A DNA stretch of 32,000 nucleotides, taken from the NCBI GenBank assembly GCA_963663995.1, contig OY760660.1, positions 660,001 to 692,000 of the forward strand. Direction: 5' to 3'. This DNA is from Erysipelotrichaceae bacterium. GTDB lineage: Bacteria > Bacillota_I > Bacilli_A > Erysipelotrichales > Erysipelotrichaceae. The notes under the pieces are model-generated. The model searched no databases. It saw nothing but the letters and a program-made list of their open reading frames with translations, and was not told the DNA's origin. Below, piece by piece: positions 2,846 through 21,036 of this stretch (position 1 is its first letter; the number at the start of each line of letters is the position of its first letter). The position numbers were made by a program, and so were the translations under genes.

Positions 2846-2862
2846 GTTTTGCCTTTCTTAAA

Positions 2863-3651
2863 TTAAGATTCTTTATAGGCATTTACATAAGCAGATAAAA
2901 TGATATCGAAAACATAGTCAATTCCATATTTCCCATACATAAAGCTACTTTCACCGGTTACATCACGTTTACTTAAATGGTAAACCTTATCATAACCCTC
3001 ATTTAATTTGGGATTACGATTACCTGTATACAGTGTTTTATGAGCTTTTGAATCCTTAATAAAAGGATAAATTGCATTTGCAAATACCCCAGTAACGGAT
3101 AGTGTAATCAAACAATCTTTTTCATTAGCCTCGCTAATCATAGAATGATCTTCATAACTATCAGATACTAAGTAAATAATCTTTCCATACAAAGCCATTG
3201 CTTGTTGGAAGTTTTTGATGACAGATGTTGAAGCATCTGACGTTAAAATAACGACATAGCGTGAATCATGGAGCACTTTAATAATTGAATTTATCTCTTC
3301 CGTATCCATACGGTAATCAAGTTCTTCAATCATTTCATTGATTTCTAAGGTTAATTTAGATCTATACTCTTCGCGTCCATAATGTTTAATTGATTGCGAC
3401 ATTTTGTCATCGTACTCAGTAAACTCATTTTTCAAATCTAAAAAGCTTCCATAGCCAAGAGACTTACAAAAACGACGAACACTTGAACGAGAAACGTAAC
3501 ATTCAGCTGCTACATCAAAGATATTGAGTTCTGATAAATGATTATAATTTTCCAAAAAATAGCGTGCGAGTACTGCGCTACTATCATCTGGAGAGTTATC
3601 ATTCAGAACCGTAAATAAAGAATTCAATAGGCCTAATCGGTTTATGCGCAT
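2863..3651 (-). CDS. RpiR/MurR-family transcriptional regulator (HTH_6 + SIS domain)
   Basis: 262 aa. N-terminal HTH segment reads IFDVAAECYVSRSSVRRFCKSLGY. The C-terminal half is a SIS-like sugar-phosphate-binding region. A strong SD GGGAGGA lies 5 nt before the ATG. It is the first gene of the rpiR-GH1-PTS operon. Confidence 0.85.
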   Translation of the reverse strand: MRINRLGLLNSLFTVLNDNSPDDSSAVLARYFLENYNHLSELNIFDVAAECYVSRSSVRRFCKSLGYGSFLDLKNEFTEYDDKMSQSIKHYGREEYRSKLTLEINEMIEELDYRMDTEEINSIIKVLHDSRYVVILTSDASTSVIKNFQQAMALYGKIIYLVSDSYEDHSMISEANEKDCLITLSVTGVFANAIYPFIKDSKAHKTLYTGNRNPKLNEGYDKVYHLSKRDVTGESSFMYGKYGIDYVFDIILSAYVNAYKES

Positions 3652-4996: not shown

Positions 4997-5004
4997 ACAA
5001 AAAC

Positions 5005-5028
5005 AAAATCTCCAAGCGGAGATTTTTT
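5005..5028. terminator. Bidirectional intrinsic terminator between the convergent MFS and nuclease genes
   Basis: 9-bp stem AAAATCTCC (5005-5013) / GGAGATTTT (5018-5026) with loop AAGC. A/T runs flank it on both sides. Confidence 0.8.
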
Positions 5029-5040
5029 AATAGATTTAAC

Positions 5041-6276
5041 TTATTCCCCTACCATTCCATCATTATCACCATCAACCATATATTGATATAACCAAAAGTC
5101 AGAATGAATAGGCATAGAGTAACCAGCTGCTTTTGCTTCAGCAATGGTGATTGTCCCATTGTGATTTGTGTCTATTGAACTAATATCATGCGAGTCTTGT
5201 GCATTAGAATTATCTTTAGGACTCACATTATCAAAATCATCTGTCGTTGTGATGCCATTAATAACATAGCTGAAACTGTAATGTGATGGTGTTTGAGTTG
5301 CCGTATTAGGATAGGTTATCAGGGCAATAAACTGACTTGCCCCTAAGGCAGAGCGAATGCTACTTTCCATATAAGCTTGATCACCATAGCGATTCAAGGT
5401 TGAATCTTGAGGGGTGATGTTATAAGCATTGGATACACCTCCAAGAGAATCAGCTATAACATGACCTTGATCTAAATCTGGGCTTTCTGTACCTGGCACT
5501 CTCGCTTCATCACTACAATATCTTCCCTCTCCTAAAAGCACTTCTGTACGTTCATTTTGACGGGTAATTTTATCAGCTAATATCACGATAAGTTGTCCAT
5601 ATTCATTTGTAAAAGCCCAATACTCACGATCACCATACCCGACATCAACGACAACATTAACATCTCTTCCACCTGACAGATCACATTTATCAACTTCAAT
5701 AAGTCTGTGATTCAATAAGTCTAAAGTTTTTATTTTATCTAATAACCAATCACTCCCATTATTAATACTTGCTTCACTTACAATAACTGTTAATGTTTTT
5801 GAAAAATCATCTATTGAATAAGTTACCGTATAAGTACCTGCAGCGCTTGTATTTACAGGATTAATTATATTTATTTTGGGATTATCATTAATATAATTTC
5901 GTGGGTCAAAGACTGAACCAAATTCTAAAGTTAATTCACTTGAGCTTAAAAGAATTGGCTCCTCTAAAACGATGACATTCAAAGTTTTTTTGACATCATC
6001 GATTGAATAGATAACCACGTATGAACCAGGAATATTGATATCTACACTATTGGCAATACTTAATTTATATTTTAATGACTCATCAACAAATTGATAAGGA
6101 TCAAAGTTTTGTCCAACATAAATTTCAACTTGATCTTTTAATAAATGAAAATTAATATCTTCAGTACTTTGAATCTCTTCATTTGATTCAGTTGAAACAA
6201 TCGATGAACATGAAAATAAAAAAACTAAGAGAATAGATCCAATAACTTTTAAAAAGTACTGTCTTTTTTTAATCAT
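5041..6276 (-). CDS. Secreted lipoprotein nuclease: 2 Ig-like repeats + DNA/RNA non-specific endonuclease (EssD/Endonuclease_NS_2-like beta-beta-alpha-Me) + Excalibur-like Ca-binding tail
   Basis: 411 aa. Signal peptide with lipobox-like LFSC (Cys23). Two ~60-aa repeats end in GSYVVIYSIDDVKKTLNVIV and GTYTVTYSIDDFSKTLTVIV. The catalytic-type motif is DQGHVIADSLGG...NITPQ...LN. The C-terminus reads DTNHNGTITIAEAKAAGY...DGDNDGMVGE. Confidence 0.65.
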   Translation of the reverse strand: MIKKRQYFLKVIGSILLVFLFSCSSIVSTESNEEIQSTEDINFHLLKDQVEIYVGQNFDPYQFVDESLKYKLSIANSVDINIPGSYVVIYSIDDVKKTLNVIVLEEPILLSSSELTLEFGSVFDPRNYINDNPKINIINPVNTSAAGTYTVTYSIDDFSKTLTVIVSEASINNGSDWLLDKIKTLDLLNHRLIEVDKCDLSGGRDVNVVVDVGYGDREYWAFTNEYGQLIVILADKITRQNERTEVLLGEGRYCSDEARVPGTESPDLDQGHVIADSLGGVSNAYNITPQDSTLNRYGDQAYMESSIRSALGASQFIALITYPNTATQTPSHYSFSYVINGITTTDDFDNVSPKDNSNAQDSHDISSIDTNHNGTITIAEAKAAGYSMPIHSDFWLYQYMVDGDNDGMVGE

Positions 6277-6321: not shown

Positions 6322-6349
6322 AAAAAAACTCCAATTTGTATAGAGTTTT
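6322..6349 (-). terminator. Intrinsic terminator of the first GGDEF gene
   Basis: The minus strand reads AAAACTC-(11-nt loop)-GAGTTTT followed by TTT. The stem overlaps the TAA stop at 6348-6350. Confidence 0.55.
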
Positions 6350-7472
6350 AGGAATACGCAACGATTTGTTTTTTACCTTGGTGTTTAGCCACATATAATC
6401 GCTCATCAGCCAGTGCGAGTAATCGTTCATTACTGTTATCTTTCAGTTCAGCTAAACCACCACTGATTGACATACTAATCTTATCAAACTTAAGTTGAGC
6501 AACCGCATCACAGATACGCTGACTAACAATATTGGCGTTTTCTTTTGTGGTTTCAGGAAAGACAACTAAGAATTCTTCACCACCATAGCGACCAATTAAA
6601 TCAGTATCACGCACACAACGATGAATCACTTTAGCAACTTCTAAGATAACTTTATCGCCTTCTTGATGACCAAAGGTATCATTAGTTTTTTTAAAATCGT
6701 CAATATCTAACATGAGTACTGATAAATCCTTCTTGTATCGATGGGCATGAGCTACAGCTTCATCCATTTGTAAAAGAATACTTTCATGATTATAGAAGCG
6801 TGTCATTGGATCACGTTTATTAAGTTCTTCTAGTTTATTATTTAAGTCCATTTGATGTTGATGGTTATACCAAAGTTCAACCGTTTTTTGATTTGACTTA
6901 ATCCCTAAATACCAAGCAATAAATGTGAAGACAATGAGATTTTCAATCATATGAAAGGAAGCTTCAGGATTAGTTGATAATATCGCAACAAAGAATACAT
7001 TTACGATGAGTGAAACCATAACCATAAAAGTTAATGAAACAACTGGAATATAAATAGTTACCGCAATTATCATGATTGTCGCAATATACATATGAACAAA
7101 ATCAAAATCATTAATGACAACAATATTTAAACAAGAAGCTAATGCGATAAAGTTAAAAACGATAATATGTTGAAGTTTAAACATCTTCATAAAATCTGCT
7201 TGCCAATTTTTACGTTTAAATTTAAAAGTAGGAATAAAAAGCAAACCATTTGTTACAAGAAAAGCCATTGCGACATAACGAATATTGATATGAATTGATG
7301 GCATCAACGCGATGGATAATTCAACAAATTCTAAACCAATCATTATTCGATAAACACTTTGAAAATTCTCAATAATTCTTTCCTTTGAGAATTCATCACG
7401 ATACTTTTCCATCTCATCAGCACTGTGATTAGGTGCAACAAGTTTATAATATATTTTCTTAAATATATTCAT
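6348..7472 (-). CDS. Membrane-bound diguanylate cyclase (6 TM N-terminal domain + GGDEF domain), paralog 1
   Basis: 374 aa. GGEEF is encoded at 6570-6584. The I-site RDTD lies 5 residues upstream. Nucleotide-binding motifs are DIDDFKKTND and GHQEGD. Six hydrophobic helices occupy residues ~40-195. Confidence 0.9.
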   Translation of the reverse strand: MNIFKKIYYKLVAPNHSADEMEKYRDEFSKERIIENFQSVYRIMIGLEFVELSIALMPSIHINIRYVAMAFLVTNGLLFIPTFKFKRKNWQADFMKMFKLQHIIVFNFIALASCLNIVVINDFDFVHMYIATIMIIAVTIYIPVVSLTFMVMVSLIVNVFFVAILSTNPEASFHMIENLIVFTFIAWYLGIKSNQKTVELWYNHQHQMDLNNKLEELNKRDPMTRFYNHESILLQMDEAVAHAHRYKKDLSVLMLDIDDFKKTNDTFGHQEGDKVILEVAKVIHRCVRDTDLIGRYGGEEFLVVFPETTKENANIVSQRICDAVAQLKFDKISMSISGGLAELKDNSNERLLALADERLYVAKHQGKKQIVAYS

Positions 7473-7555
7473 ACTTAAAATATATCACGCTATGTCACAT
7501 TTTTTAGGTATAATTGTATTAATTTCATGTCGTATTTCTATAGATAAATATTTAT

Positions 7556-8680
7556 TTAGACAGTTGTTTGAATTTGATTTTTACCATTGTTTTTAGCAAC
7601 ATAGAGTTGTTTATCAGCTATTTGAATGAGTTCCTTACTACTTTGTTTATTTAACTCTGCGATACCACCACTAATAGTAATCGAAAAATTTTCAAACTGA
7701 ATATCTGCGATAGATTGACGAATCCGTTCTGCAATATCTACGGCTTGAGCTTTTAGCGTTTCAGGGAATAAAATCATAAACTCTTCGCCACCATAGCGGC
7801 CAATTAAATCATTATTACGAACTTGACTTCGGATGACTTTAGCAACTTCCATTAAGACTTTATCACCATATTGATGTCCATAATTATCATTAATATTCTT
7901 AAAGTCATCTAAATCCAGAATAAGAATTGATAAATCTTTATGATTCATTTTCGCTTTTTCGATTTCATTATCGAGTAGTTGGAAGATTTTCTCATGATTA
8001 TAAAATTGGGTCATTGAATCTTTTTGAGCTAATTCCTCAAGTTGAATATTAGCTTCTTTTTGATTGTGATAATTCATCCAAATAATAATTCGATTACGAT
8101 TGGATAACACTCCAACATACCAAGCTAAAAAGATAAAAATAAAAATATTCATGATTTCAAATTGAATAACTAAAGGGTCAGAATGATAATATAAAATACC
8201 CGCAATATTAAAAATTTCAGTTACAATCGCTAAGTTAGCTAGTGTGGTCGATTTGATATGTAAAACAACTGCTGAAAATACAAAGATAACAATATACATA
8301 TGCACTAAGACTAAATGATCTGATTCAAAAAAGTTGAATATACTGCTTAAAAAGTAAAAGTTTAAAAGGATGACGTTTTGAACTCGTAACATTGATTTAT
8401 AGCGAACACCATAATTATTCTTTTTAAAACCATTTACAACTAAAATTGCAATCACATTGATAAATAAGAATATGACTAGTGAAATTTTTGTTTTAAGCTC
8501 AAAATTAAAGAAAAGAAGTGAAAAGTTTAATGGTGTTGTCAACAACATTAAACCCCACAAGTGTTCTAAGTTAACTTGGGTTTGTTCAAACAAAAACTCA
8601 AAGCGAAATGGGAAAACCGCTTTGTGTTCTGGTTTAGGATAAGCAAAGTCATAAAACATATCGACAAATTTATTTATCAT
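7556..8680 (-). CDS. Membrane-bound diguanylate cyclase (6 TM + GGDEF), paralog 2
   Basis: 374 aa. GGEEF is encoded at 7778-7792. The I-site is RNND. Motifs DLDDFKNIND and GHQYGD are present. Architecture and length match paralog 1. Confidence 0.9.
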   Translation of the reverse strand: MINKFVDMFYDFAYPKPEHKAVFPFRFEFLFEQTQVNLEHLWGLMLLTTPLNFSLLFFNFELKTKISLVIFLFINVIAILVVNGFKKNNYGVRYKSMLRVQNVILLNFYFLSSIFNFFESDHLVLVHMYIVIFVFSAVVLHIKSTTLANLAIVTEIFNIAGILYYHSDPLVIQFEIMNIFIFIFLAWYVGVLSNRNRIIIWMNYHNQKEANIQLEELAQKDSMTQFYNHEKIFQLLDNEIEKAKMNHKDLSILILDLDDFKNINDNYGHQYGDKVLMEVAKVIRSQVRNNDLIGRYGGEEFMILFPETLKAQAVDIAERIRQSIADIQFENFSITISGGIAELNKQSSKELIQIADKQLYVAKNNGKNQIQTTV

Positions 8681-8738
8681 AAGTCTATTTTACCCACATA
8701 ATTAGACTTATTTATATCAAGATGCATTTGATAGAGTG

Positions 8739-8761
8739 AAAAAAAAGCTCAATTTGAGCTT
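8739..8761 (-). terminator. Intrinsic terminator of the third GGDEF gene
   Basis: The minus strand reads AAGCTCA-AAT-TGAGCTT followed by 8 U. The TGA stop (8749-8751) sits inside the stem. Confidence 0.75.
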
Positions 8762-9888
8762 AATATTGATTCAATACGATTTTTACCTTGTTTTTTCGCT
8801 TTATATAAGCGGATATCAGCTAATTCAATTAATTCATCACGTGTATGTTGATCAAGGCTTGCTAAACCACCACTGATGGTTAAGTGGATATCACCCACTC
8901 TAATGTTCTCAACATTTTCTCTTATTCTTTCAGAGACATTTAGTGCTTGTTGAAGATTAGCACCTGGGAAGATAATCATAAATTCTTCACCACCATGACG
9001 GCCTAATATATCTTGTTCACGTACATTTGAACGAATACAATCAGATACGGCTAATAAGACTTCATCCCCTTTTAGATGACCATACTTGTCATTAATGTTT
9101 TTAAAGTCATCGATATCAATAATCAATAAAGCTAAAGATGATTGCCGTACATTAGCTTCCTTAATACTAAGATCTAATAATCTAAAAACATGGTCATGAT
9201 TAAAGAATTGGGTCATTGAATCTATAACTGCAATATCTTGTAAAAGTTCATTTTCATTTATATGTTTACGAACATTTAACCACAAGAGCATACGATGTCG
9301 ATTATTAACAACACCAAAGTACCAAGCAAAAGATACAAAGAAAATTAGATTAATTATTTCATACAGGATTGTATAGAAATCATAGGTATGTAAAAGCAAA
9401 ATACTTGTTATATTAAGACTTAAACTAATAAAACCAATAATTGCCATTGTTTTTGCAGGTATATGAAACAGAATTGCCGTATATGCAAAGGCGACAATAT
9501 AGAGATGAATATTGATCATGTCATTATAACTAAAGGCATTGAAAGCACTTGTCCCATATAAGAAAGTTAATATTACAAGTAACTGAACAATAAATTGATA
9601 TCGAAATGAAACAGCATAATGATATCGCTGCCAATAATAAATAATAATGGCATACACTGTTGAAAAAACGACAAAGACAACTAGACTTGCTTTTAATAAA
9701 CCATCAAAAAGCGGAAACAATAAAGCTATAAATGCAGAAATAATTGAAACAATTAATATCTTTAACATCTGATTAAGATTACGAATGGTGTATTCTCTTA
9801 AAAAGACATCTAAATATGGAAGTATTTCTTTATGTTCTGCGCTTGGATATAAAAAATTTTCAAAGCTTCTATTAAATTTTTTCCACAT
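8749..9888 (-). CDS. Membrane-bound diguanylate cyclase (6 TM + GGDEF), paralog 3
   Basis: 379 aa. GGEEF is encoded at 8980-8994. The I-site is REQD. Motifs DIDDFKNIND and GHLKGD are present. The N-terminus aligns with the other two paralogs from Met1. Confidence 0.9.
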   Translation of the reverse strand: MWKKFNRSFENFLYPSAEHKEILPYLDVFLREYTIRNLNQMLKILIVSIISAFIALLFPLFDGLLKASLVVFVVFSTVYAIIIYYWQRYHYAVSFRYQFIVQLLVILTFLYGTSAFNAFSYNDMINIHLYIVAFAYTAILFHIPAKTMAIIGFISLSLNITSILLLHTYDFYTILYEIINLIFFVSFAWYFGVVNNRHRMLLWLNVRKHINENELLQDIAVIDSMTQFFNHDHVFRLLDLSIKEANVRQSSLALLIIDIDDFKNINDKYGHLKGDEVLLAVSDCIRSNVREQDILGRHGGEEFMIIFPGANLQQALNVSERIRENVENIRVGDIHLTISGGLASLDQHTRDELIELADIRLYKAKKQGKNRIESILSSN

Positions 9889-10038
9889 GCATAAATAATA
9901 CTACTCAATCGATTTTTTTTAAATTATTTCACATTTTTTAAGTTCATAATTTTAAAGTTTAATCTAATTATCTATTGTATTAGTATAAGCTTGATTAAGC
10001 TTCTTGAAAAAAGAGAATAGATAGTTTTTAATTAATAT

Positions 10039-10236
10039 ATGGAATGGTTTCATGTACTTGGTATTTCTACCGCAACCCTTGCCTTTTTAGCCCTTATCTT
10101 ATTTAAGGGATTTTCTTATTATCAATACTACAAAATCTACAGTAAGAAACGACAAGAAGGTCAACAAAAAATCACTTATAAAGAGTATGAGAAATATCGT
10201 CGTTTAATGGAAGCGCAAATGAAAGACAAAAAATAA
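10039..10236 (+). CDS. Small single-pass membrane protein, hypothetical
   Basis: 65 aa. One N-terminal hydrophobic helix (LGISTATLAFLALILF) is followed by a K/E/Q-rich tail. A strong terminator starts at the stop codon. No SD is present. A TTGAAA-17 nt-TTTAAT promoter-like pair ends 6 nt before the ATG. Confidence 0.45.
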   Translation: MEWFHVLGISTATLAFLALILFKGFSYYQYYKIYSKKRQEGQQKITYKEYEKYRRLMEAQMKDKK

Positions 10237-10260
10237 AGACAATCGCGAGATTGTCTTTTT
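10235..10260. terminator. Bidirectional intrinsic terminator between the small ORF and the lipoprotein gene
   Basis: 10-bp stem AAAGACAATC / GATTGTCTTT with loop GCGA, and a T-run on the plus strand. It sits between convergent gene ends at 10236 and 10267. Confidence 0.8.
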
Positions 10261-10266
10261 ACTTAA

Positions 10267-11181
10267 TTATTCGAAATATATAGTTTGTCCATTAAGCTTA
10301 AAGAGTTCTAAGAAAGCTTCAACAGCATCCTTTGAATCACTGGCGTTTTTAACATCAATGTTTAAGCCATCCCATGCTTTCGCAACAAGTGCCCCACTTG
10401 GAACACCAAGTACTGCAGCTCCAATCGCATCAATAGGCGCAACGACTACATCCATTGCATTCTCATCTGCACTACTCACAAAGTCTTGCATTGCTGCAAA
10501 TCGAACTTCTATTTGAGCTAATTGATCTTCTGATAAATCTGCTTTAACAAATAGACCAGCTTGTGGGAAGTTTTCATAGCCAGTTTTTGCTAACCAGGCA
10601 GCTTGTACATCTTCAATTACTTGTAGATTGATACCATTTTCTTGTGCTTTAACTAAAGTCGCTGTGACTAATGGTTCAGCCAGTAAACCTAAGTTGTATT
10701 GACCAGTCAATAACTGCGCTTGAACATCCGCTACAGCATTGAAGAATTCACCACTATACGCAGGATTAGCTGCATATAAAGTGTTATAAACAATTCCAGG
10801 AACGGCTTTATCACCAAATAAGGCAAGCGGTTCTGCTTCTTCCGCTACCATATCTGGATTACCAACAAGGTATAAATTACCCCAAGTTAATACAGCATAT
10901 AGTTTGTATGTTTCATTTCCCTTTGAATAAAGCATCGCCCCTAAATTAACTGGCGCAACAATAACGTCATATTCCCCTTTAACAAGTTCTGCACTGAGTA
11001 AATCTGCGCCATCAACGAAGTCGATCGCATCAACATCAGATTCTACTAAAGGAATTAATGCAACGGCTGGTGCACCTTTAGGTGACAATATACTTAAACT
11101 ATTCCATTCAAGTGGTTGTGTACTTGTACAGCCACTTAATAATAAGCCCACTAATAAAACTAAACTAAGAATTCTCTTCAT
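10267..11181 (-). CDS. Lipoprotein resembling a type-2 periplasmic solute-binding protein (orphan; no permease or ATPase nearby)
   Basis: 304 aa. Signal peptide with lipobox LLSGC. The mature part is a soluble A/L/V/G-rich alpha/beta-type sequence. The ATG (11179-11181) directly abuts the thrS stop (11182-11184), and its SD AGGAGA lies inside the thrS 3' end. The fold and family assignment come only from overall sequence character. Confidence 0.5.
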   Translation of the reverse strand: MKRILSLVLLVGLLLSGCTSTQPLEWNSLSILSPKGAPAVALIPLVESDVDAIDFVDGADLLSAELVKGEYDVIVAPVNLGAMLYSKGNETYKLYAVLTWGNLYLVGNPDMVAEEAEPLALFGDKAVPGIVYNTLYAANPAYSGEFFNAVADVQAQLLTGQYNLGLLAEPLVTATLVKAQENGINLQVIEDVQAAWLAKTGYENFPQAGLFVKADLSEDQLAQIEVRFAAMQDFVSSADENAMDVVVAPIDAIGAAVLGVPSGALVAKAWDGLNIDVKNASDSKDAVEAFLELFKLNGQTIYFE

Positions 11182-13209: not shown

Positions 13210-13803
13210 TTATTTTTGTTTACGCCAAACAAAGGTATGAATCAATTTTAATATGCCATAGATCGCTGCCATGGCGATCGCCACAATTCTGTTTTGTGGG
13301 GTTGAAGCATTCACAATGAGATGTACAAACATTAAGACATAAGATACATAAGCAAAGCGTTGAAGTTTTTTCCAGTTTTGTGGTGTCATTTTCTTTCGAA
13401 CACTGATATAAGATGTAATCCATAGTGGAATCATCACCACATAGGAAATCACACCATACCAAGGAATATCACGAACACCTGTTAAAATTTCACTTGTATA
13501 GAAAATTGGATGAGCTGTTAAGAGGACAAAACCTAAAATACTGTACATCCCTCTTACACTCATTAAACGTTTAGTGAGTGTCCACTTAGGGGGCAGTGCA
13601 CCGCTAATGGCAACCACGAAGAATAAGGCATAACCAATGAAGCCTTTGACAAAGGGTGCCATAAATGGCGCATTTCTCAAAATAATTTCAAGAGCGAGCA
13701 CGCCCCAAACACCATAAGTTAAAATTTTACGGTATTTAAGAATTTTTGGCGCAAAGAAGTAAGCTAAAATCATAAACAAAATTGCAAATATCGGAGACAA
13801 CAT
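13210..13803 (-). CDS. Six-TM membrane protein, tentatively ferric-reductase-like / MsrQ-like transmembrane domain
   Basis: 197 aa with ~6 hydrophobic helices. WKKLQRFAYVSYVLMFVHL resembles the W-x-x-L-H-R...H segment of MsrQ/YedZ-type haem-binding domains, but has Q in place of the first His. The start is 3 nt after the MMPL stop, indicating the same operon. Confidence 0.35.
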   Translation of the reverse strand: MLSPIFAILFMILAYFFAPKILKYRKILTYGVWGVLALEIILRNAPFMAPFVKGFIGYALFFVVAISGALPPKWTLTKRLMSVRGMYSILGFVLLTAHPIFYTSEILTGVRDIPWYGVISYVVMIPLWITSYISVRKKMTPQNWKKLQRFAYVSYVLMFVHLIVNASTPQNRIVAIAMAAIYGILKLIHTFVWRKQK

Positions 13804-13806
13804 AAA

Positions 13807-16620
13807 CTAATTTCCTCTCTTTTCCCTAAGTTTTTTAGGGATCAAAACATTATCAAATAAAACAATCAGTGGTGGTAATACTAAGAAGGTAGAAAGTAGT
13901 GCTAAGCTAATATTCACCACTGTCATAATCCCGAAATCTTGTAGAATTACGAAATCTGACATGAGCAATACCGCAAATCCACCCACGGTTGTAAGTCCTG
14001 AAGCTAAGACCGCTTTCCCAATCTTTTGAATCGACACAATCATCGCTTCTGTTTTATCAAAACCTAGACATCTTTCTTCTAAATAACGTTCCATCACCAT
14101 GACTGTCATTTCTGTTCCCATCCCTAGAATCAAAGCACCCAGTGTTGCGGTAATCGGGGTAAAGGCAATGTTGAAACTATACATAAAGAGTGATGAGAAA
14201 CCAATGATTATCGATACAGGAATAATCGGGACAATCGCTTTAAAGAGATTTCGATAGATAAGAAGTAGAGCAGCAAAGACTAAAGCTAGACCAATTAAAG
14301 TCATTTCAATGCGTCCTGAGGTTAAACCATCTACCATGACCACATCTAAGACTGATTTCCCAGTGAGTGTATATGCAAAGGGTGCAGCTGATAGAAGTCG
14401 ATCAATGTCATCAACTAAATCACTCATATCTTCAATCGCTAAGTGTCCTACCGAAATCAGCATGACAGCTTGATTATTTTCAGAGACAAAGAGTTTTCTT
14501 TGATTCTCAGGTAAGTTTAGGATTTGTTCTTGAATATCATCAGCATTTAGATCAATTTCGCTATCCATATTTTTTAAGATAGAAGTAATCGATTGCACAT
14601 CACTAATTTCATCAGGGAAATGATTTTCTAAAAGCCTTTCAATTTCATCTAAATAAATGAGATTTTCAGGTGCTAAGATATCATCGTCTTGAATATAGAT
14701 CGCAATTTGATCGGTACTTGATAGCGCATCACGTATCAAATGAATATCTTCTAATTCTTTTAAATCTTGAGGCATAAAAGTCTCAATATCTGTTTCAACA
14801 GCTATCTTCGAATCAACTGAGAAACCATATGCCGCAATGCCACTTACAAGCACAAGAATGATTAGACCAAGTTTTAATGTCCACTTGGTCCAAAATGCGA
14901 AGAAGCGCTCTAAGTGACCTTGCTTTGTTTCAGTGGATTGTGTTTGCACTTTCGTTTCATGATGCTGAGAAGCTCTTAAAATAGGCATTAAGATAAACAT
15001 GGCTGCCAAGAAACTTATCACAACCCCTATCGTCAACATCTTCCCAAAATCTTGAATCATAGGAACTGATGACGCGTACAAGGAAATGAAACCAAGCATG
15101 GTCGCAATGACTGCCACCGCTACAGCTGGGGCAATATTGATCATGGCTTCTTTCACATTTTGGTTTTCTTGAAAACGGTTATGGAATTGAATCGAATAAT
15201 CAATCCCTAAACCGATTAGAATTGGGAAGACCGCCATCGACACCATCGTTACCGGTACATCAATCCATGACATAAAGCCTAAAGTAGCCAGTACCGCAAT
15301 AAATATCGTAAGAAGTGAGAGGAGTCTCCATTTTACTTTAAACACAAGCAATAAGATAAGTAACATCAAACCAATAGCCATACCAACCATAGCCTGCATA
15401 CTACTTTTCATTTCAGTTTTCAAAGCAGAATCTAAAATAGATTTTCCTGAAACAGTTATATTTATTTCATCTGTTTTTAAATCCAGCAATAAAGAAGCTA
15501 TGCTTTGGGATATTTCATCTTTATCCCCATCACTTAAATTTCCTTCTAATTTAACTACCATCATCATTTGATGATCAGAAATCAAAATGTCATCAAACAA
15601 AGACCGAAGTTCTGTATCTTCATATAAAAGTAAATCTATTTCATCTTGACTTGCAGGAATTCGTGCTTCCATCATTCCCGACTTATCATGAAACATACTT
15701 AAGGCATCTGAGATATCGCTTAGTTTTCCACCCATCTCAATAAAACCATCAGCCATTTTTAATAAATCATCTTTACTTAAGGCAGAGGATAAATCCCCTT
15801 TCATATCACTTAATTTAGTGCTTAAGTTATCTTCAATCGATCCTAAAGCCGTCGCTGTATTAGAAGTACCTGTTTGAATACTTTGGGTATTTGTACCCAT
15901 CGTATCTAAACCTACAGATGTCGTATTTAAATTTGTCGCAATGGTTAACAATTGTGTTTTTAATGGATCTTGTAAGGTATTTGCTAATTGACTTAGTTGT
16001 AATGCGACTGTCCCAATCCCATCCGATGTTTGGTATAAGGCAAGCTCTAGCGTATGAACACCTTCTGTTAAAGCATTTTGACCTGCTTGAAGTTCTGTAA
16101 ATTTTAAAGAGATATCTTCAAGCGCACTTAATTCAGCTAACATTTCTTCAGGATCTTTAATGTCTTTAGCCTTAAGTTCTTCACCTAAATCAATCATGGT
16201 AGAACTCATCATACTTAAGCCATCAGATAGTTCAGCTAAGTTATCAATAATCATCGCTGCTTGTTTGCTTGTCATTTCATGAAGAATAGAAGTGAGTGAT
16301 AAAACAGAAAAGACATGATCTGTTTCTTCAATGCGTGTTTGTATATCATACAAATCATTTAAGAAAACAGGTTCTAATAAAGGCTCAAGATTTTCAGCTT
16401 CGAACAATATTAATACTGCATCTCCCCCAAAATTAGCTTCCATTTCAACATTGGCAATATAAACAGGATTATCACTTTGAACTAAAGTGTCATTTCCTGT
16501 GGCTAAGCGCAGCTGCGTTGCCCCAACTACCATTGCGAGCACTATTAATAAAGTTATAAATAGTGTTTTAAAAGGTCTTCTATCCACGATAGAAGCTAAG
16601 AAATTAATAATATTATTCAT
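13807..16620 (-). CDS. MMPL/RND-superfamily membrane transporter with a long coiled-coil insertion in the first extracytoplasmic loop
   Basis: 937 aa. Two 6-TM bundles (about residues 405-560 and 760-920) each follow a large loop. Loop 1 contains a ~200-aa low-complexity, heptad-like L/S/T/D/G-rich segment (encoded ~15631-16263) reminiscent of YhgE/Pip-type repeats. The gene starts 3 nt after the TetR stop. Confidence 0.8.
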   Translation of the reverse strand: MNNIINFLASIVDRRPFKTLFITLLIVLAMVVGATQLRLATGNDTLVQSDNPVYIANVEMEANFGGDAVLILFEAENLEPLLEPVFLNDLYDIQTRIEETDHVFSVLSLTSILHEMTSKQAAMIIDNLAELSDGLSMMSSTMIDLGEELKAKDIKDPEEMLAELSALEDISLKFTELQAGQNALTEGVHTLELALYQTSDGIGTVALQLSQLANTLQDPLKTQLLTIATNLNTTSVGLDTMGTNTQSIQTGTSNTATALGSIEDNLSTKLSDMKGDLSSALSKDDLLKMADGFIEMGGKLSDISDALSMFHDKSGMMEARIPASQDEIDLLLYEDTELRSLFDDILISDHQMMMVVKLEGNLSDGDKDEISQSIASLLLDLKTDEINITVSGKSILDSALKTEMKSSMQAMVGMAIGLMLLILLLVFKVKWRLLSLLTIFIAVLATLGFMSWIDVPVTMVSMAVFPILIGLGIDYSIQFHNRFQENQNVKEAMINIAPAVAVAVIATMLGFISLYASSVPMIQDFGKMLTIGVVISFLAAMFILMPILRASQHHETKVQTQSTETKQGHLERFFAFWTKWTLKLGLIILVLVSGIAAYGFSVDSKIAVETDIETFMPQDLKELEDIHLIRDALSSTDQIAIYIQDDDILAPENLIYLDEIERLLENHFPDEISDVQSITSILKNMDSEIDLNADDIQEQILNLPENQRKLFVSENNQAVMLISVGHLAIEDMSDLVDDIDRLLSAAPFAYTLTGKSVLDVVMVDGLTSGRIEMTLIGLALVFAALLLIYRNLFKAIVPIIPVSIIIGFSSLFMYSFNIAFTPITATLGALILGMGTEMTVMVMERYLEERCLGFDKTEAMIVSIQKIGKAVLASGLTTVGGFAVLLMSDFVILQDFGIMTVVNISLALLSTFLVLPPLIVLFDNVLIPKKLREKRGN

Positions 16621-16623
16621 TTA

Positions 16624-17148
16624 TTAAACCAATAATTCCGCTACAACATAATCGATGTAGTCTTCAATATTCTTAAGTTTAATTTCTGGATGATATAAAT
16701 AGGATAGAAACATACCCATTAAAATACGTTGTTTAAGTTCTATTTTTTCTTTTACGCCATAAGAGAATAAAAGTTTTTGAAGAGATTTCACCATCTCTTC
16801 AATCACATTTGTATATTCTTTCAACAACATTTGTTCATTCAGTATGAGTTTAATCACTAAGTGATGTTTATTAATATATTGAACACGTTGAATTAGCGCA
16901 GCTCTTAGAGTTTCTATAAACTTTTCATGATTCGCATCCAACTTCAACATTTCTAATGATTCTTCAATCACTGGCTTAACACTCAACATAAAGATTTCAT
17001 CTTTCGATTTAAAATATCTAAACAATGTTACTTCAGAGATATTCGCTTGTTTAGCAATCTCTGCAGTAGTTGTTCCTTTATAGCCTTTTTCAATAAAGAC
17101 ATTTAATGCAGCCTCTAATAATTCACTTTGACGTTCTTCTTTATTCAT
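16624..17148 (-). CDS. TetR/AcrR-family transcriptional regulator
   Basis: HTH segment TTTAEIAKQANISEVTLFRYFKSKDEI. The ORF track starts at 17160, but that ATG overlaps the SD. I prefer ATG 17148 (MNKEERQ...), which has GGAG at 17158-17155. Confidence 0.85.
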   Translation of the reverse strand: MNKEERQSELLEAALNVFIEKGYKGTTTAEIAKQANISEVTLFRYFKSKDEIFMLSVKPVIEESLEMLKLDANHEKFIETLRAALIQRVQYINKHHLVIKLILNEQMLLKEYTNVIEEMVKSLQKLLFSYGVKEKIELKQRILMGMFLSYLYHPEIKLKNIEDYIDYVVAELLV

Positions 17149-17164
17149 ATTTCGCTCCAAATGT

Positions 17165-17211: not shown

Positions 17212-17240
17212 TAAAAAAGCATTTGATTTCTCAAATGCTT
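17212..17240 (-). terminator. Intrinsic terminator ending the VTC-DUF4956-lipoprotein operon
   Basis: The minus strand reads AAGCATTTGA-GAAA-TCAAATGCTT followed by TTTTTT. It lies 7 nt after the stop at 17247. Confidence 0.85.
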
Positions 17241-17246
17241 GAATTA

Positions 17247-19013
17247 TTAATTACGGCTAGGTCTAGTTCCACCAGGCTGTGCGGCGGACGAACCAAAACT
17301 TGTGATCGTTTGACTAATGCTAAAGGTACCAATACTTGTATAAGAACCCAGTGATCCAGAAGTAGCGACATAATCTGTGTAAGTCGCATCAGTTGAACCA
17401 CCCGAGACTAAAATATAATCACCATTAACAAGATTTAATCCACTGTAAACAATTGAACTCAGTGTTTTTGGTGCTTCTACTGAAACAATAATATTCCCAT
17501 CAGTATCAATTATACTAATAAGCTCACCTGCACTAACACCTGAGAAGTTTATCAAAACTGTATTTTGGCTTGAGCTTGTCGCTTGTTCGGCCATACCTGC
17601 TGATCCTACTGCTAAGAGTGTTCCACCATTTAAAGTAAATTGTCCATTGTAGTCAATGGCACCATTACCATTATTGGTTGGACCAAAAACAATCACTGTT
17701 CCATCATTCATAACAAGTGAGCCATTAGAGTCTAAACCATCACCAGAAGCATCCATCACGAGTGTTCCACCATTGATGGTAACCAAAACAGCTGCTTCTG
17801 CTGACATACTTTGTGAACCTGATCCTGATGATCCATTAATACCATCATCAAAGGATGTTAAATCAATTCTCCCATCATTAATGGTAATAACTGTTGCTTC
17901 AATCCCTTCGTAAGATTCAATGATGCTAATATTTCCTCCGTTGATAGTGATACTGTTATCAGAATGCAAACCATCATCTCCTGAAGATAAAGTAATCGTC
18001 CCATCATTAATGATTAAATTACCATTACTGTGTACAGAATCATCTTTTGCGCTAATGATAATATCACCACTATCAATAATGATTTCATTAACTGCTTTTA
18101 AACCTTTACCTGAATCCACTGAAGTCATTAATGAACCTGATGTGATATCAAAATCTCCAGAGATAATTTCTAGAATATTTTCTGCTTGAATACCATCATA
18201 ACCCGCATTAATTGTGATATCAGAACCTTCGATTAAGATATTTCCAACATCTGTGCTTTCAGCATTGCTTGATACAATCCCATCACCATTTGCAGTGATA
18301 TTTAAAATAACATTTTGTGCCCAAACAACATCTTTGCCTTTTATCGCATCATTTTTAGCAGTTACTGTGATATTTACATCGATCATTCTTAAATCATCTT
18401 TAGAATAAATACCATGATTGTAATTAGCAGTAACAATTAATTCGCCTGTACCGTTGAAAGTTAAATCTGATGATGAGAAGATTGCCGCATTTGGTTCCTC
18501 TTCAGCTTGGGCATATAAGCTGCCATCTTCAATCGTGTTTGTTGTCCCTTCTTTCAATGTAATGATGATTTTATCACCACTGTTAATTACGACAGCTGCA
18601 CCGCTTGTGTGTGTGATTGAAGCATTATCTAATACGATATGTACTTCTTCATCATCTGCCGCATTAACAATAATTTGACCATCCGTTAATGTCCCAGTTA
18701 TGACATAATCACCCCCACCATTAATGCTAATTAGTCCATTATCAATGCTTACATTGTTTCCATCTGTTGTTGCTGAATTTCCACTTAAAGTAATTGTTTC
18801 TTCATCATATACATCTGTTCTTAAATCTTCCTGTGTAAAATTAAAACTTAAAGATGTTTCTATCGATGTATTAGTTGTTTCTGTACTAGATGTTTCTTCT
18901 GTATTTGTATTTGTCTCATCAACGACTTCACTGTTTGAAGTTGTTGTACTACATCCAGCTAGTAATAGTGATAAGAGTAAGCCACTGCTCATTAATATTT
19001 TTTTAGATTTCAT
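17247..19013 (-). CDS. Cthe_2159-family beta-helix (carbohydrate/polyanion-binding type) lipoprotein
   Basis: The ORF track starts at 19088, overlapping the upstream gene by 71 nt. I prefer ATG 19013 (MKSKKILMSSGLLLSLLLAGCS), a classic lipoprotein signal with lipobox LLAGC and SD AGGA. A T/S/E/N-rich linker follows. Family-typical segments include GDYVITGTLTDGQIIVNA and EPNAAIFSSSDLTFNGTGELIVTANYNHGIYSKDDL. At least 8 coil repeats carry DG[ILV]x[SA] (DGIVSS, DGIQAE, DGLHSD, DGINGS, DGLDSN...). Confidence 0.8.
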   Translation of the reverse strand: MKSKKILMSSGLLLSLLLAGCSTTTSNSEVVDETNTNTEETSSTETTNTSIETSLSFNFTQEDLRTDVYDEETITLSGNSATTDGNNVSIDNGLISINGGGDYVITGTLTDGQIIVNAADDEEVHIVLDNASITHTSGAAVVINSGDKIIITLKEGTTNTIEDGSLYAQAEEEPNAAIFSSSDLTFNGTGELIVTANYNHGIYSKDDLRMIDVNITVTAKNDAIKGKDVVWAQNVILNITANGDGIVSSNAESTDVGNILIEGSDITINAGYDGIQAENILEIISGDFDITSGSLMTSVDSGKGLKAVNEIIIDSGDIIISAKDDSVHSNGNLIINDGTITLSSGDDGLHSDNSITINGGNISIIESYEGIEATVITINDGRIDLTSFDDGINGSSGSGSQSMSAEAAVLVTINGGTLVMDASGDGLDSNGSLVMNDGTVIVFGPTNNGNGAIDYNGQFTLNGGTLLAVGSAGMAEQATSSSQNTVLINFSGVSAGELISIIDTDGNIIVSVEAPKTLSSIVYSGLNLVNGDYILVSGGSTDATYTDYVATSGSLGSYTSIGTFSISQTITSFGSSAAQPGGTRPSRN

Positions 19014-19017
19014 AAAT

Positions 19018-19698
19018 TTATCCTGCATAGTCTCCATTGTAGCTAACGAGTTGTACATTTGATACACCTGTAATTTGCGCAATCGCATTCACAAAAGCGG
19101 TATCTTGATCTTTAAGTTGACACTCGTAAATCAACTCATGTTCATATTGAGATTGTGTTTTTGACTTTATTCTAAGTTTTCTTGTTCGACTTTCCAAAAT
19201 TCTAAAAGCTTCTTCTTCAGCATTTGCGCTTTCTAAGCGAAGTATCGCAATATATGCTGTATTCTCACCTGTTTGTTTACCTTTAAAGACTAAGAGTAAA
19301 CCGATAAACATTGACCCAAAGATGCCAAGAGGAATAAGTCCTGCGCCCATAACGATACCACCACCAATGGCCCAAAATAGAAAGACTAAATCAAGTGGAT
19401 CTTTTATCGCCGTTCTAAATCGAACAATGGATAAAGCCCCAACCATCCCTAAAGACAAAACTACATTGGATGTAACGGCCAAAATAACAAAGGTTGTTAG
19501 TAAGGTTAATAAGATTAAACTTAAATTAAAACTTTCTGAATACATTACCCCTAAGAATGTTCTTTTATAAATAATATAAATAAACATCCCTAAAATAAAT
19601 GAGGCGGATAAAGCTATTCCATAATCAACAAATGAGACAGCTGTCATATTCTCTAAAAACGAATTCTTAAAGACATCACTAAACGTTGTTAATAACAT
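19018..19698 (-). CDS. DUF4956-family integral membrane protein with a C-terminal soluble domain
   Basis: 226 aa with 4 predicted TM helices. The family hallmark SLGMVGALSIVRFRTAIKDPLDLVFLFWAIGGG is present. A ~95-aa soluble tail follows. SD AAGGAGA is upstream. The stop lies 4 nt before the lipoprotein ATG. Confidence 0.8.
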   Translation of the reverse strand: MLLTTFSDVFKNSFLENMTAVSFVDYGIALSASFILGMFIYIIYKRTFLGVMYSESFNLSLILLTLLTTFVILAVTSNVVLSLGMVGALSIVRFRTAIKDPLDLVFLFWAIGGGIVMGAGLIPLGIFGSMFIGLLLVFKGKQTGENTAYIAILRLESANAEEEAFRILESRTRKLRIKSKTQSQYEHELIYECQLKDQDTAFVNAIAQITGVSNVQLVSYNGDYAG

Positions 19699-19710
19699 AT
19701 TTTTTCTCCT

Positions 19711-20382
19711 TTAAATTTGAGACATTCGTCCCAAAACATATTTTGAATGAGCAATCCGTGAGGGATCAAAGCGTTTAATAGAGGCTTGAATAAAATCAGG
19801 AATAAAGCGATCATATTTTATTTCAAGTAGATTTTGAACACCCCACTTAGGTAAGCAAGCAAGGTTTTTATCAAAGAATCCTTTAACATTGATTGAGCTT
19901 TGTATCTTACGATCGATCGTAACCCTGACATTTCCACTTTCAAATTGAAAGGCTTCACGTTCATAATCAATGATAATAACCGGTCTTAATTGATTCTGTT
20001 TGACATCATGCATAAAGGCATGAGCTAAATCACTTTGACTCTTTTCTAAGAAATCAATCTCACCTTTCAGAATCTTTTCAACTTCATTTTTTTGAAGTCT
20101 TATATGTTCTTTTCGACCTTTATGATAATTTTTAGATTTTCTTTCAAGTAGTATAAATTCAGTATTGTAGTTATACATACGTATTCGATATTTACTACGT
20201 TTGGCTAAACCCATTTGATTTTGATGAAGACTTCGATCATAAATATCATCGAAATAGAGTGAGCGCACATGATACATACCATTTATCGCATGTTTATCAT
20301 GTTTAAGAACTTGCCTTAAGATATTGGATATCCTTAAATTATCTTCATGCTTAATTTCATATTTAATCTCATTTCGATACAT
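19711..20382 (-). CDS. VTC-domain (polyphosphate polymerase / triphosphate tunnel metalloenzyme-like) protein
   Basis: 223 aa. The N-terminus MYRNEIKYEIK matches the R-x-E-x-K-Y beta-1 signature of bacterial VTC/CYTH-like proteins. Alternating charged strands appear as YRIRMY, LLERKSK, RVTIDRK and LLEIKYD. SD AAGGGG is upstream. It is the first gene of a three-gene operon. Confidence 0.75.
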   Translation of the reverse strand: MYRNEIKYEIKHEDNLRISNILRQVLKHDKHAINGMYHVRSLYFDDIYDRSLHQNQMGLAKRSKYRIRMYNYNTEFILLERKSKNYHKGRKEHIRLQKNEVEKILKGEIDFLEKSQSDLAHAFMHDVKQNQLRPVIIIDYEREAFQFESGNVRVTIDRKIQSSINVKGFFDKNLACLPKWGVQNLLEIKYDRFIPDFIQASIKRFDPSRIAHSKYVLGRMSQI

Positions 20383-20475
20383 CCTATATCCCCTTTCCTT
20401 TGTTTACAGTGTTAATTCTAATCAACAAATATGGCGAGAATGTGGCAACAAAGAAACAAAAAAAGAACATATGAC

Positions 20476-20505
20476 TAGACAAATAGTCTTGAACCTGTGT
20501 ATAAT
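20476..20505 (+). promoter_or_regulatory. Candidate promoter for the DUF4395 gene (TAGACA-18 nt-TATAAT)
   Basis: TAGACA at 20476-20481 and a consensus TATAAT at 20500-20505, 34 nt upstream of the ATG at 20539. Confidence 0.45.
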
Positions 20506-20509
20506 ACAA

Positions 20510-20532
20510 ACCTACCTATAAGTATGGTAGGT
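20510..20532 (+). promoter_or_regulatory. 5'-UTR hairpin whose 3' arm is the only SD-like sequence of the DUF4395 gene
   Basis: Perfect 7-bp inverted repeat ACCTACC (20510-20516) / GGTAGGT (20526-20532) with a 9-nt loop. The ATG follows 6 nt later. Confidence 0.4.
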
Positions 20533-20538
20533 ATATAC

Positions 20539-20952
20539 ATGAAAACTATTCCACAACCCTTGGTAAGAGCTAATCAAGCCTTCGTCGCAAGTACTGCATT
20601 AGCCTATTTAATCTTTAAGAATGAAGTCTTTTTACTCATTCCTTTACTTAACTGTTTATTCTCTTTAGTCATCCATAAAAACTTCATCATGCTTATTGCG
20701 AAAAAGTTTTTAAGAAAACCACTCAATGAATATCATCAAGAAGATAAGGATGATCAACGTTTTAATCAAAGTTTAGCGATGACGATGTTTCTACTAGCGT
20801 ATATTAGTCATCTCTTAAGTTGGACCTTTAGTAGCGTTATCTTTGCCTCTATGGTTTTAATCGCATCGACGGTTGCTTTAATGGGCTTCTGTGTTGGATG
20901 TTTTATCCGTTTCCAATATAGAATGTACAAATATCGTAGAGCACAAGCTTAA
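20539..20952 (+). CDS. DUF4395-family small membrane protein
   Basis: The ORF track starts at 20497. I prefer ATG 20539 (MKTIPQPLVRANQAF...). It has 4 hydrophobic helices and a C-terminal GFCVGCFIRFQY (CxGC) segment typical of the family. Confidence 0.6.
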   Translation: MKTIPQPLVRANQAFVASTALAYLIFKNEVFLLIPLLNCLFSLVIHKNFIMLIAKKFLRKPLNEYHQEDKDDQRFNQSLAMTMFLLAYISHLLSWTFSSVIFASMVLIASTVALMGFCVGCFIRFQYRMYKYRRAQA

Positions 20953-21000: not shown

Positions 21001-21031
21001 AAAAAAAATGGAACTTGTTATAGTTCCATTT
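21001..21031 (-). terminator. Intrinsic terminator of the pfkA-pyk-ROK-pepS gene string
   Basis: The minus strand reads AAATGGAACT-ATAACA-AGTTCCATTT followed by TTTTT. It starts 6 nt after the pepS stop. Confidence 0.85.
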
Positions 21032-21036
21032 TTACA

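Follow-up and report, generated by a model that had tools for sequence, protein, structure and literature searches.

The stretch of DNA analyzed here, 32,000 nucleotides from an Erysipelotrichaceae bacterium (positions 660,001 to 692,000 of the forward strand of contig OY760660.1, assembly GCA_963663995.1; "the window" below), carries three adjacent genes. They encode a VTC-type triphosphate-tunnel protein (gene 1), a DUF4956 membrane protein (gene 2) and a Cthe_2159-type beta-helix lipoprotein (gene 3). With slightly less than even confidence, we tentatively read this trio as a version of an envelope module that is conserved and has three parts. A set of VTC, DUF4956 and CotH genes has already been noted at Gram-positive pel loci, and the trio in the window is the less common beta-helix variant of this module, which is widespread in Firmicutes.

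The module emerges from a census of 83 VTC loci, namely 80 fetched loci, two further loci (L001 and L002) and the window. The fetched loci are the best 80 of more than 584 in GTDB representatives, i.e., those nearest to the query, and the proportions below are not representative of all bacteria. Open reading frames were called and clustered, cluster-specific profiles were applied, and representatives were verified against Pfam. A DUF4956 gene immediately follows the VTC gene in 80 of the 83 loci, the exceptions being two truncated contigs and one probable miss. The third slot most often holds a CotH kinase-like protein (57 loci), followed by a Cthe_2159 beta-helix protein (14 loci, the window included). 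Five loci are of a Pel type with the order DUF2194-PelF-PelG-CotH-VTC-DUF4956-DUF4832, two have nothing in the third slot, and in another five the contig is too short to tell. None of the 83 loci has both CotH and Cthe_2159. The initial annotation of the window had asked whether CotH-like kinases co-occur with the trio. CotH does occur with VTC and DUF4956. However, it is the protein that usually fills the third slot, and the beta-helix takes its place there. A pair consisting of an OmpR-type response regulator and a histidine kinase adjoins 37 of the loci, and is missing from the window. A link to phosphate through this neighboring two-component system was considered and dropped, as its proteins gave only generic sub-threshold matches (PnpS, PhoR, WalK and others).

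The two main types of third protein appear to be interchangeable. In a neighbor-joining tree of VTC plus DUF4956, which is rough and lacks support values, the beta-helix loci are scattered among the CotH loci, at no fewer than five distinct positions. Judging from this tree, the beta-helix type is polyphyletic, with CotH and beta-helix versions swapping repeatedly. In Clostridia, third proteins of both types share an N-terminal signal anchor, MSTHKHIDKIC, then 11-12 residues, then LFMNGEALG (examples in Table 1). Given that both types carry this common anchor, the ectodomain has been swapped behind a conserved membrane anchor. The shared anchor suggests a specific contact in the membrane, perhaps with DUF4956. 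Third proteins in the lineage of the window and in Trichococcus have a lipobox in place of the Clostridial anchor. Among loci with enough downstream sequence, the third slot nearly always holds an extracytoplasmic, membrane-tethered, acidic protein, and every third-slot protein sampled is acidic.

The beta-helix trio itself is found in 17 loci, comprising the window, 13 more in the census and three additional ones (L091, from an Erysipelotrichaceae metagenome-assembled genome, L092 and L093). The flanks of L001 and L002 are those of the window, even at 44% identity of the VTC protein, and the trios of L091, L092 and L093 lie in unrelated flanks. Since the trio recurs in unrelated flanks, it moves as a unit, and the co-conservation on which the initial annotation had made its proposal depend is borne out. 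Chance co-transcription of unrelated genes was rejected on account of the conservation across 83 loci and the movement between unrelated flanks.

Gene 1 matches the Pfam VTC family (PF09359) over residues 3-219 of 223 (E 3.3e-35, 122.2 bits, cutoff 23), and the family is present in 120 of 120 homologues among the matches listed. There is no further Pfam match above cutoff, and the protein lacks SPX and membrane domains. The product is basic (isoelectric point (pI) 9.7) without a hydrophobic segment, and is predicted to be a cytoplasmic, single-domain protein. Its AlphaFold2 model has a predicted local distance difference test (pLDDT) score of 90.1. When this model was compared with the PDB using Foldseek, ranks 1-13 were all tunnel domains of Vtc4, Vtc2 or Vtc3 (E 1e-13 to 1e-10), with a query-normalized TM-score (TMq) of up to 0.78 for Vtc4. 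Other triphosphate tunnel metalloenzymes (TTM), which include TTM/CYTH hydrolases of bacteria, archaea and plants along with putative cyclases, follow from E 8e-9. The model has the eight-stranded triphosphate tunnel fold, with Vtc proteins nearest to it. Thus, the Pfam match and the model agree with the VTC-type fold that had been proposed initially.

Conservation within the family extends the similarity to the active site. An alignment of 34 gene 1 homologues has 30 invariant positions, which are mostly basic or acidic residues at alternate strand positions. The profile of this alignment finds Vtc4 structures in the PDB at E 4e-8, and the single sequence is marginal (E 0.055). In the profile alignment, the family-invariant residues R66, R68, K82, K91, Y140, R142, R153, E187 and K214 correspond to Vtc4 R264, R266, K281, K294, Y359, R361, R373, E426 and K458, respectively. 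The near-invariant S213 corresponds to S457, and K189 to K428. According to papers on VTC structures determined by cryo-electron microscopy, the triphosphate ligands of Vtc4 are K200, R264, R266, K281, R361, K458, S457 and Y359, while E426 holds Mn2+. Mutation of any one of the eight triphosphate-binding residues lowers cellular polyphosphate (polyP), and catalysis is impaired in an R264A/R266A/E426N mutant. These papers also note that K458 is the sole such residue to differ in the inactive paralogues Vtc2 and Vtc3. Given that K214 is invariant, the bacterial family is grouped with the active Vtc4. The second-strand motif, LE[VI]K, is likewise that of Vtc4, whereas hydrolases have ExE. Based on the alignment and the model, gene 1 appears to encode a tunnel enzyme of the Vtc4 type that is competent for catalysis, and not a generic CYTH protein.

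Gene 2 matches Pfam DUF4956 (PF16316) with E 8.7e-8 and 32.5 bits, marginally over the gathering cutoff of 30.6. The match recurs in 32 of 32 aligned homologues (best E 3e-12), and NCBI labels relatives "DUF4956 domain-containing protein", so the initial family assignment stands. However, the four transmembrane helices described along with it do not agree with the structural model, in which five helices are predicted in the membrane part (residues 23-143), followed by a C-terminal ACT-like domain. Fold matches of this domain are weak. They include ACT domains and the C-terminal domain of MgtC (2LQJ; target-normalized TM-score (TMt) 0.62, root-mean-square deviation 3.0, E 0.012). A fold search with the full model gave no match at E <= 0.001. 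NCBIfam PRK09977 (MgtC/SapB) matches residues 75-216 with E 1.1e-5, below threshold at 25 bits against a cutoff of 214. Pfam MgtC (PF02308) is likewise sub-threshold, in 22 of the 32 homologues (best E 0.007), and JGI names for relatives are of the "YhiD" type. The predicted arrangement of gene 2, with five helices and then a presumably cytoplasmic ACT-like domain, agrees with that of MgtC/SapB/YhiD proteins, and the recurrent match covers helices 3-5 and the tail. However, gene 2 scores below the cutoffs of these families, and DUF4956 is a separate, VTC-linked Pfam family. Profiles and model together suggest a protein that is MgtC-like, not Vtc1-like. We know of no MgtC proteins tied to a VTC enzyme.

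An alignment of 32 gene 2 sequences contains a core of about 45 residues, whose columns are invariant or at least 90% conserved and which ends in VRFRTAIKDPLD...FWAIGGGIV.GAG. A basic loop, RFRTAIK, lies in this core. Applying the positive-inside rule to the helices of the model, this loop and the ACT-like domain would face the cytoplasm, which is the side of the enzyme. Across Clostridia and Erysipelotrichaceae, identity is 57-69% for gene 2 versus 37-45% for its VTC partner, at similar taxonomic breadth. DUF4956 is thus under stronger constraint than the VTC enzyme. As a whole, the DUF4956 family has 6,577 representative clusters (50% clustering, E <= 1e-3).

Gene 3 belongs to the Cthe_2159 family, as first annotated. 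It matches Pfam PF14262 with E 3.3e-80 (269.6 bits, cutoff 25.8) and, over residues 82-293, the Cthe_2159 structure 4peu with E 8.6e-29. The protein consists of a signal peptide, a linker rich in T, S and E, a right-handed Cthe_2159 beta-helix and a C-terminal region. Its signal has the elements expected of a lipoprotein from sequence, with the n-region MKSKK, the core ILMSSGLLLSLL and then LAGC. The LLAGC lipobox reported earlier is present at residues 17-21, and lipoboxes (LAGC, LSAC, LTAC) also occur in the orthologues of L001, L002 and two Trichococcus. By contrast, the claim of at least eight DG[ILV]x[SA] coils is too generous. The literal motif occurs four times, and the pattern has to be relaxed to give eight. 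All peptides that the initial annotation quoted for the three genes were located in the sequence. The founding member of the family, Cthe_2159 of Clostridium (Acetivibrio) thermocellum (4peu/4phb), resembles gene 3 in its beta-helix (about 210 residues) and in a lipoprotein-type signal ending in GC. The differences are that gene 3 has 588 amino acids (aa) versus about 290-313, with extra coils and the C-terminal region, and that the founder follows a secreted CotH gene with no VTC or DUF4956 gene nearby.

In the envelope-module reading that we tentatively favor, the three proteins would act in succession. The cytoplasmic Vtc4-type enzyme, with the fold and residues described above, would polymerize the gamma-phosphate of ATP into polyP. 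The gene 2 protein would hold the enzyme at the membrane, receive the growing chain and most likely pass it to the outer face, comparable to the non-homologous Vtc1/3/4 channel of eukaryotes. In the third and weakest step, the lipid-anchored, acidic gene 3 protein would sit on the outer face, in the slot of the CotH kinase-like ectodomain. There its target might be the product or else a wall or exopolysaccharide polymer, with binding by cation bridging in the case of polyP. A more specific version of this idea seems doubtful to us. In that version, the VTC-like enzyme and DUF4956 would be a polyphosphate synthase-translocase for PPK-independent surface or extracellular polyP, comparable to the eukaryotic VTC complex but with an unrelated, MgtC-type membrane part. 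Third-slot proteins would use this polyP outside the cell, as a phosphoryl donor or as a cation-bridged ligand on polymers of the wall or of exopolysaccharide. The initial annotation had proposed that the trio synthesizes, exports and anchors such a polymer. As a hypothesis this is partly supported, but the third member is usually CotH, the membrane protein appears to be MgtC-like, and the beta-helix would be a poor direct binder of polyP.

Several observations weigh against the envelope-module reading, and some of these concern the enzyme. The equivalence of K7 and R3 to Vtc4 K200 and R196 would follow from a shared R-x-[E/T]-x-K-[Y/H] motif only, as these residues are not aligned. The ExExK motif typical of hydrolytic TTM enzymes includes a glutamate (E5) that the bacterial family keeps, where the facing position in Vtc4 is presumably a threonine, and D191 takes the place of a Q in Vtc4. 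Because of E5 and D191, a hydrolase or another activity retains some room. In addition, no bacterial VTC-type enzyme has been studied biochemically in the literature searched. One alternative is that gene 1 is no polymerase but a hydrolase or cyclase with the tunnel fold (a triphosphatase, polyphosphatase or nucleotide cyclase), in which case the trio might serve signaling or scavenging. Most bacterial TTM/CYTH proteins are hydrolases, ygiF and putative adenylate cyclases are among the lower-ranking fold matches, and both the retained E5 and the weak single-sequence similarity to Vtc4 are consistent with this explanation. However, Vtc proteins precede all hydrolases in the fold search, the second-strand motif is not that of the hydrolases, and the lysine specific to Vtc4 is invariant. 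We consider a non-polymerase role very unlikely.

Other points concern the membrane step. The membrane part of the gene 2 model has a pLDDT of 50-68 and is poorly modeled, and a PDB search with the DUF4956 profile, in a library that includes VTC complex entries, gave no chain at E up to 1. To our knowledge, no transport function has been shown in the MgtC family. The 150 best representatives include no convincing fusion of VTC and DUF4956. Of the candidates, P0384 reads through a frameshift, P0283 and P0382 join DUF4956 to CotH by read-throughs that may not be real, and the N-terminal extension of P0335 is unrelated. Moreover, the eukaryotic channel is built from DUF202-type three-helix domains (Vtc1, and the C-termini of Vtc3 and Vtc4), to which the apparently MgtC-like product of the separate gene 2 is unrelated. 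The initial annotation had described the trio as a split bacterial analogue of VTC. Given that the membrane subunits of VTC show no relation to DUF4956, whose profile finds none of them, this description holds for the enzyme only. The likeness to the eukaryotic complex (PDB 3g3q, 7ytj, 8i6v) covers the tunnel fold and the complete set of triphosphate- and metal-binding residues, including the lysine of active Vtc4, and also the tie between enzyme and membrane protein, which is here genetic. Further differences are that gene 1 is a bare 223-aa tunnel domain, whereas the Vtc4 subunit has an SPX sensor and a membrane domain, and that the bacterial unit adds a third, extracytoplasmic protein.

The resemblance of DUF4956 to MgtC/SapB/YhiD proteins also bears on an alternative in which the trio serves intracellular phosphate or energy homeostasis. 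Here, polyP would stay in the cytoplasm at the membrane, DUF4956 would be an MgtC-like anchor or regulator that senses a metabolite via its ACT-like domain, and the beta-helix protein would be a co-regulated carbohydrate binder or adhesin of the surface that does not touch polyP itself. The acidity of gene 3, the binding of polysaccharides by its family and the existence of Cthe_2159 proteins without VTC fit this explanation. A passage in a paper on Streptococcus intermedius cites work linking Salmonella MgtC to inhibition of ATP synthase and to phosphate uptake (PMC12345266). However, the third slot almost always holds an extracytoplasmic, membrane-tethered protein, and the trio travels as a unit. 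The anchor conserved across two unrelated ectodomains argues for membership in a membrane complex over mere co-regulation. We regard homeostasis as being on the unlikely side.

The remaining points against the envelope-module reading concern gene 3 and the source of polyP. The mature gene 3 protein is strongly acidic (15 K+R versus 77 D+E, pI 4.05), which makes direct binding of polyP, itself a polyanion, doubtful. Judging from this composition, it is unlikely to bind polyanions directly, except via bridging by Ca2+ or Mg2+. Binding of cellulose and polygalacturonate is reported for the founder only, as cited in a paper that likens the Cthe_2159 fold to that of PL9 pectate lyases (PMC6712302). 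The gene of the founder (P0408, 99% identical) and that of the A. clariflavus orthologue lie 25-50 nucleotides downstream of a secreted CotH gene (about 800 aa; Table 1). The A. clariflavus pair is inside an exopolysaccharide cluster, with VTC absent within 8 kb; in the A. clariflavus reference genome, the CotH gene is interrupted by a transposase gene. Given the position of the founder beside CotH and the exopolysaccharide cluster, a glycan ligand is at least as indicated as polyP. The Cthe_2159 protein described as binding cellulose and pectin may really be part of a CotH-linked surface-polymer system. Short Cthe_2159 proteins (about 283 aa) are also found without VTC, in further envelope settings that are regulated. 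In one, the gene comes after an OmpR-type two-component system and before a gene whose product has a 5'-nucleotidase C-terminal domain, and in another it comes after an extracytoplasmic function sigma/anti-sigma pair. CotH and Cthe_2159 thus go together in some loci and replace each other in others, and both are found near surface-glycan genes.

These contexts bear on a further explanation, which overlaps with the envelope-module reading and centers on a surface glycopolymer. The module would phosphorylate or remodel this polymer. VTC and DUF4956 would supply polyP as an extracytoplasmic donor of phosphoryl groups or energy to enzymes that act on wall or exopolysaccharide polymers, and the usual user would be the CotH kinase. 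In the window, a PL9-like beta-helix would bind or cleave the polymer, and a glycan would be the ligand of gene 3. The accessory genes of streptococcal and clostridial pel loci are cotH, a "polyphosphate polymerase", DUF4956 and DUF4832 (Whitfield et al. 2020, PMC7112168), which corresponds to the order CotH-VTC-DUF4956-DUF4832. In S. intermedius (SIR_1591-1594), deletions of the DUF4956-type and CotH genes lead to less Pel and less Pel-dependent aggregation (PMC12345266). The authors of that study tie these genes loosely to phosphate metabolism, describe SIR_1592, the homologue of gene 2, as an MgtC-type membrane domain with an ACT domain, and report the three-gene synteny only at pel loci. 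Most VTC-DUF4956-CotH sets in our census (57 of 83 loci) are free-standing, often beside a two-component system. The earlier statement that bacterial VTC/DUF4956 pairs lack an experimentally shown function is nearly right, except that the pair has been described with CotH at pel loci, with a deletion phenotype.

The adjacent VTC-DUF4956 pair is what the window shares with the pel accessory set, including the five Pel-type loci of the census. However, the third gene in the window encodes a Cthe_2159 lipoprotein, and CotH, DUF4832, PelF and PelG have no match among the 23 open reading frames scanned (3824-31624; the three at 52-3651 lie outside the scan). Glycosyltransferase genes are also missing from the scanned frames. 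Moreover, Cthe_2159 has not been shown to be a lyase, and we know of no CotH enzyme that uses polyP. We consider this explanation unlikely. The literature searched holds no description of the beta-helix variant. It does describe a C. perfringens locus, NELoc-2, with genes for VTC, for a 222-226-aa membrane protein mis-annotated as "tubulin/FtsZ" and for CotH (PMC2879425). In a Zetaproteobacteria stalk cluster, a lead from the literature, CotH is present and VTC absent, and transcriptome tables for Bacteroides and S. mutans merely list DUF4956 genes. The locus tags that neighbor the founder in C. thermocellum gave no match in this literature.

Bacterial polyP is attributed to PPK1 and PPK2, neither of which is encoded among the scanned open reading frames. 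The product proposed for the module is the same, but the folds and mechanisms of these enzymes are unrelated to gene 1. According to a 2026 preprint, extracellular polyP is abundant in the Bacillus cereus group, requires neither PPK1 nor PPK2, and comes from a source that is not known (PMC13484657). A PPK-independent route to extracellular polyP is therefore plausible. However, the same preprint states that B. cereus has no VTC4 homologue, which is a further point against the envelope-module reading.

We now describe the layout of the locus (Table 1). The arrangement of three same-strand genes with gaps of 12 and 4 nucleotides was reproduced. The 12-nucleotide spacer between genes 1 and 2 is AGGAGAAAAAAT and includes an AGGAG Shine-Dalgarno sequence. 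The ATG of gene 3 (19013) comes 4 nucleotides after the stop of gene 2, with AGGA 7 nucleotides 5' of it. Gene 3 might instead start at an in-frame ATG at 19037 or 19028, and the gene caller placed the start of gene 3 in L001 at the counterpart of 19037. Upstream, the pepS gene is closed by its own terminator (21033..21004), and the next gene, for a DUF4395 membrane protein (20497-20952, plus strand), is divergent. The trio is therefore its own transcription unit, and its promoter would have to lie in the shared intergenic region. A promoter had been claimed there initially. Its existence is deduced from the layout, as a consensus scan for sigma-70-like promoters found none on the minus strand in 20383-20496. 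The terminator reported after the third gene is confirmed, at slightly different coordinates than the 17212-17240 given at first. The DUF4395 gene has a near-consensus promoter, TAGACA-18-TATAAT, at 20476-20505; this gene occurs in L001 and not in L002.

Table 1 Coordinates of the features of the trio in the window and of genes in other loci
Feature	Sequence	Position	Strand	Details
Gene 1	window	19711..20382	-	223 aa; VTC-type triphosphate-tunnel protein, candidate polyphosphate polymerase
Gene 2	window	19018..19698	-	226 aa; DUF4956 membrane protein, apparently MgtC-like
Gene 3	window	17247..19013	-	588-aa lipoprotein precursor; enclosing open reading frame 19088..17247
Near-invariant core of gene 2	window	19339..19485	-	residues 72-120, ILAVTSNVVLSLGMVGALSIVRFRTAIKDPLDLVFLFWAIGGGIVMGAG
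ACT-like C-terminal domain of gene 2	window	19042..19257	-	beta-alpha-beta-beta-alpha-beta, residues 148-219, pLDDT about 80
Lipoprotein signal peptide of gene 3	window	18951..19013	-	MKSKKILMSSGLLLSLLLAGC, lipobox Cys at residue 21
Intergenic region 5' of gene 1	window	20383..20496	-	114 nucleotides, shared with divergent DUF4395 gene; Shine-Dalgarno sequence of gene 1 AAAGGAAAGGGG
Intrinsic terminator 3' of gene 3	window	17217..17240	-	10-bp stem, 4-nucleotide loop, then T-run TTTTTATATTG
Third gene with shared anchor (found in L005-L082)	L058	11379-13301		example
Third gene with shared anchor (found in L005-L082)	L073	11371-13929		example
CotH-Cthe_2159 pair (founder/A. clariflavus)	L083	5553-8870		CotH protein with LTD-Fn3-CHB_HEX-CotH
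CotH-Cthe_2159 pair (founder/A. clariflavus)	L084	4003-8870		CotH protein with LTD-Fn3-CHB_HEX-CotH
CotH-Cthe_2159 pair (founder/A. clariflavus)	L085	5556-8861		CotH protein with LTD-Fn3-CHB_HEX-CotH
Short Cthe_2159 context	L087	4025-9071
Short Cthe_2159 context	L089	4513-6852

The surroundings of the trio are ordinary chromosome, with uniform G+C across the region. One flank contains polA, mutM, coaE, dnaB/dnaI, pfkA, pyk and genes for a ROK kinase and an M29 peptidase, and the other a TetR/MMPL pair, thrS and three tandem GGDEF genes. Right after the trio (13210-17160, minus strand) is an operon of a TetR regulator, a 937-aa MMPL/HAE3-type RND transporter and a ferric-reductase-like membrane protein. 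This operon is kept in L001 and missing from L002, and is therefore placed outside the module. L001 has a HicA/HicB toxin-antitoxin pair (17321-17960) between the ferric-reductase-like gene and thrS, which the window does not have. Directly after thrS is a 304-aa open reading frame (10267-11181, minus strand) without a Pfam match, and a gene of the same size is found there in L001 and L002. The GGDEF genes (6348-9888, minus strand) lie some 7-10 kb downstream of the trio and encode paralogous membrane proteins of 374, 374 and 379 aa. In L092, the trio is flanked by PAS-GGDEF-HD and GAF-HD genes (243-2003 and 9547-11082), and in L093 only a downstream GAF-HD gene (4119-5654) is beside it. These GGDEF and HD neighbors, together with the Pel-type loci, hint at a possible link to cyclic di-GMP. 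Finally, a 411-aa protein with bacterial Ig-like surface domains and a non-specific DNA/RNA endonuclease domain (5041-6276, minus strand) is probably a secreted or surface nuclease.

The module is a candidate for a second bacterial route to polyP, one that possibly moves polyP across the membrane, and it is widespread in Firmicutes of the gut and rumen. If DUF4956 is indeed the translocating part, the MgtC superfamily would gain its first transport-type function. The module is also relevant to what MgtC-type proteins did ancestrally. Should the enzyme turn out to be no more than a hydrolase, interest shrinks to a conserved operon without an assigned function. The swap of CotH and beta-helix behind one anchor gives a handle on the roles of secreted CotH kinases and Cthe_2159 proteins, and suggests that the "cellulose/pectin-binding" label of Cthe_2159 is perhaps not its native role. 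The window has the smallest form of the module, with three genes, its own terminator and no regulator, which suits heterologous expression. The locus is of interest because a PPK-independent, possibly exported bacterial polyP pathway would be directly testable with three small genes.

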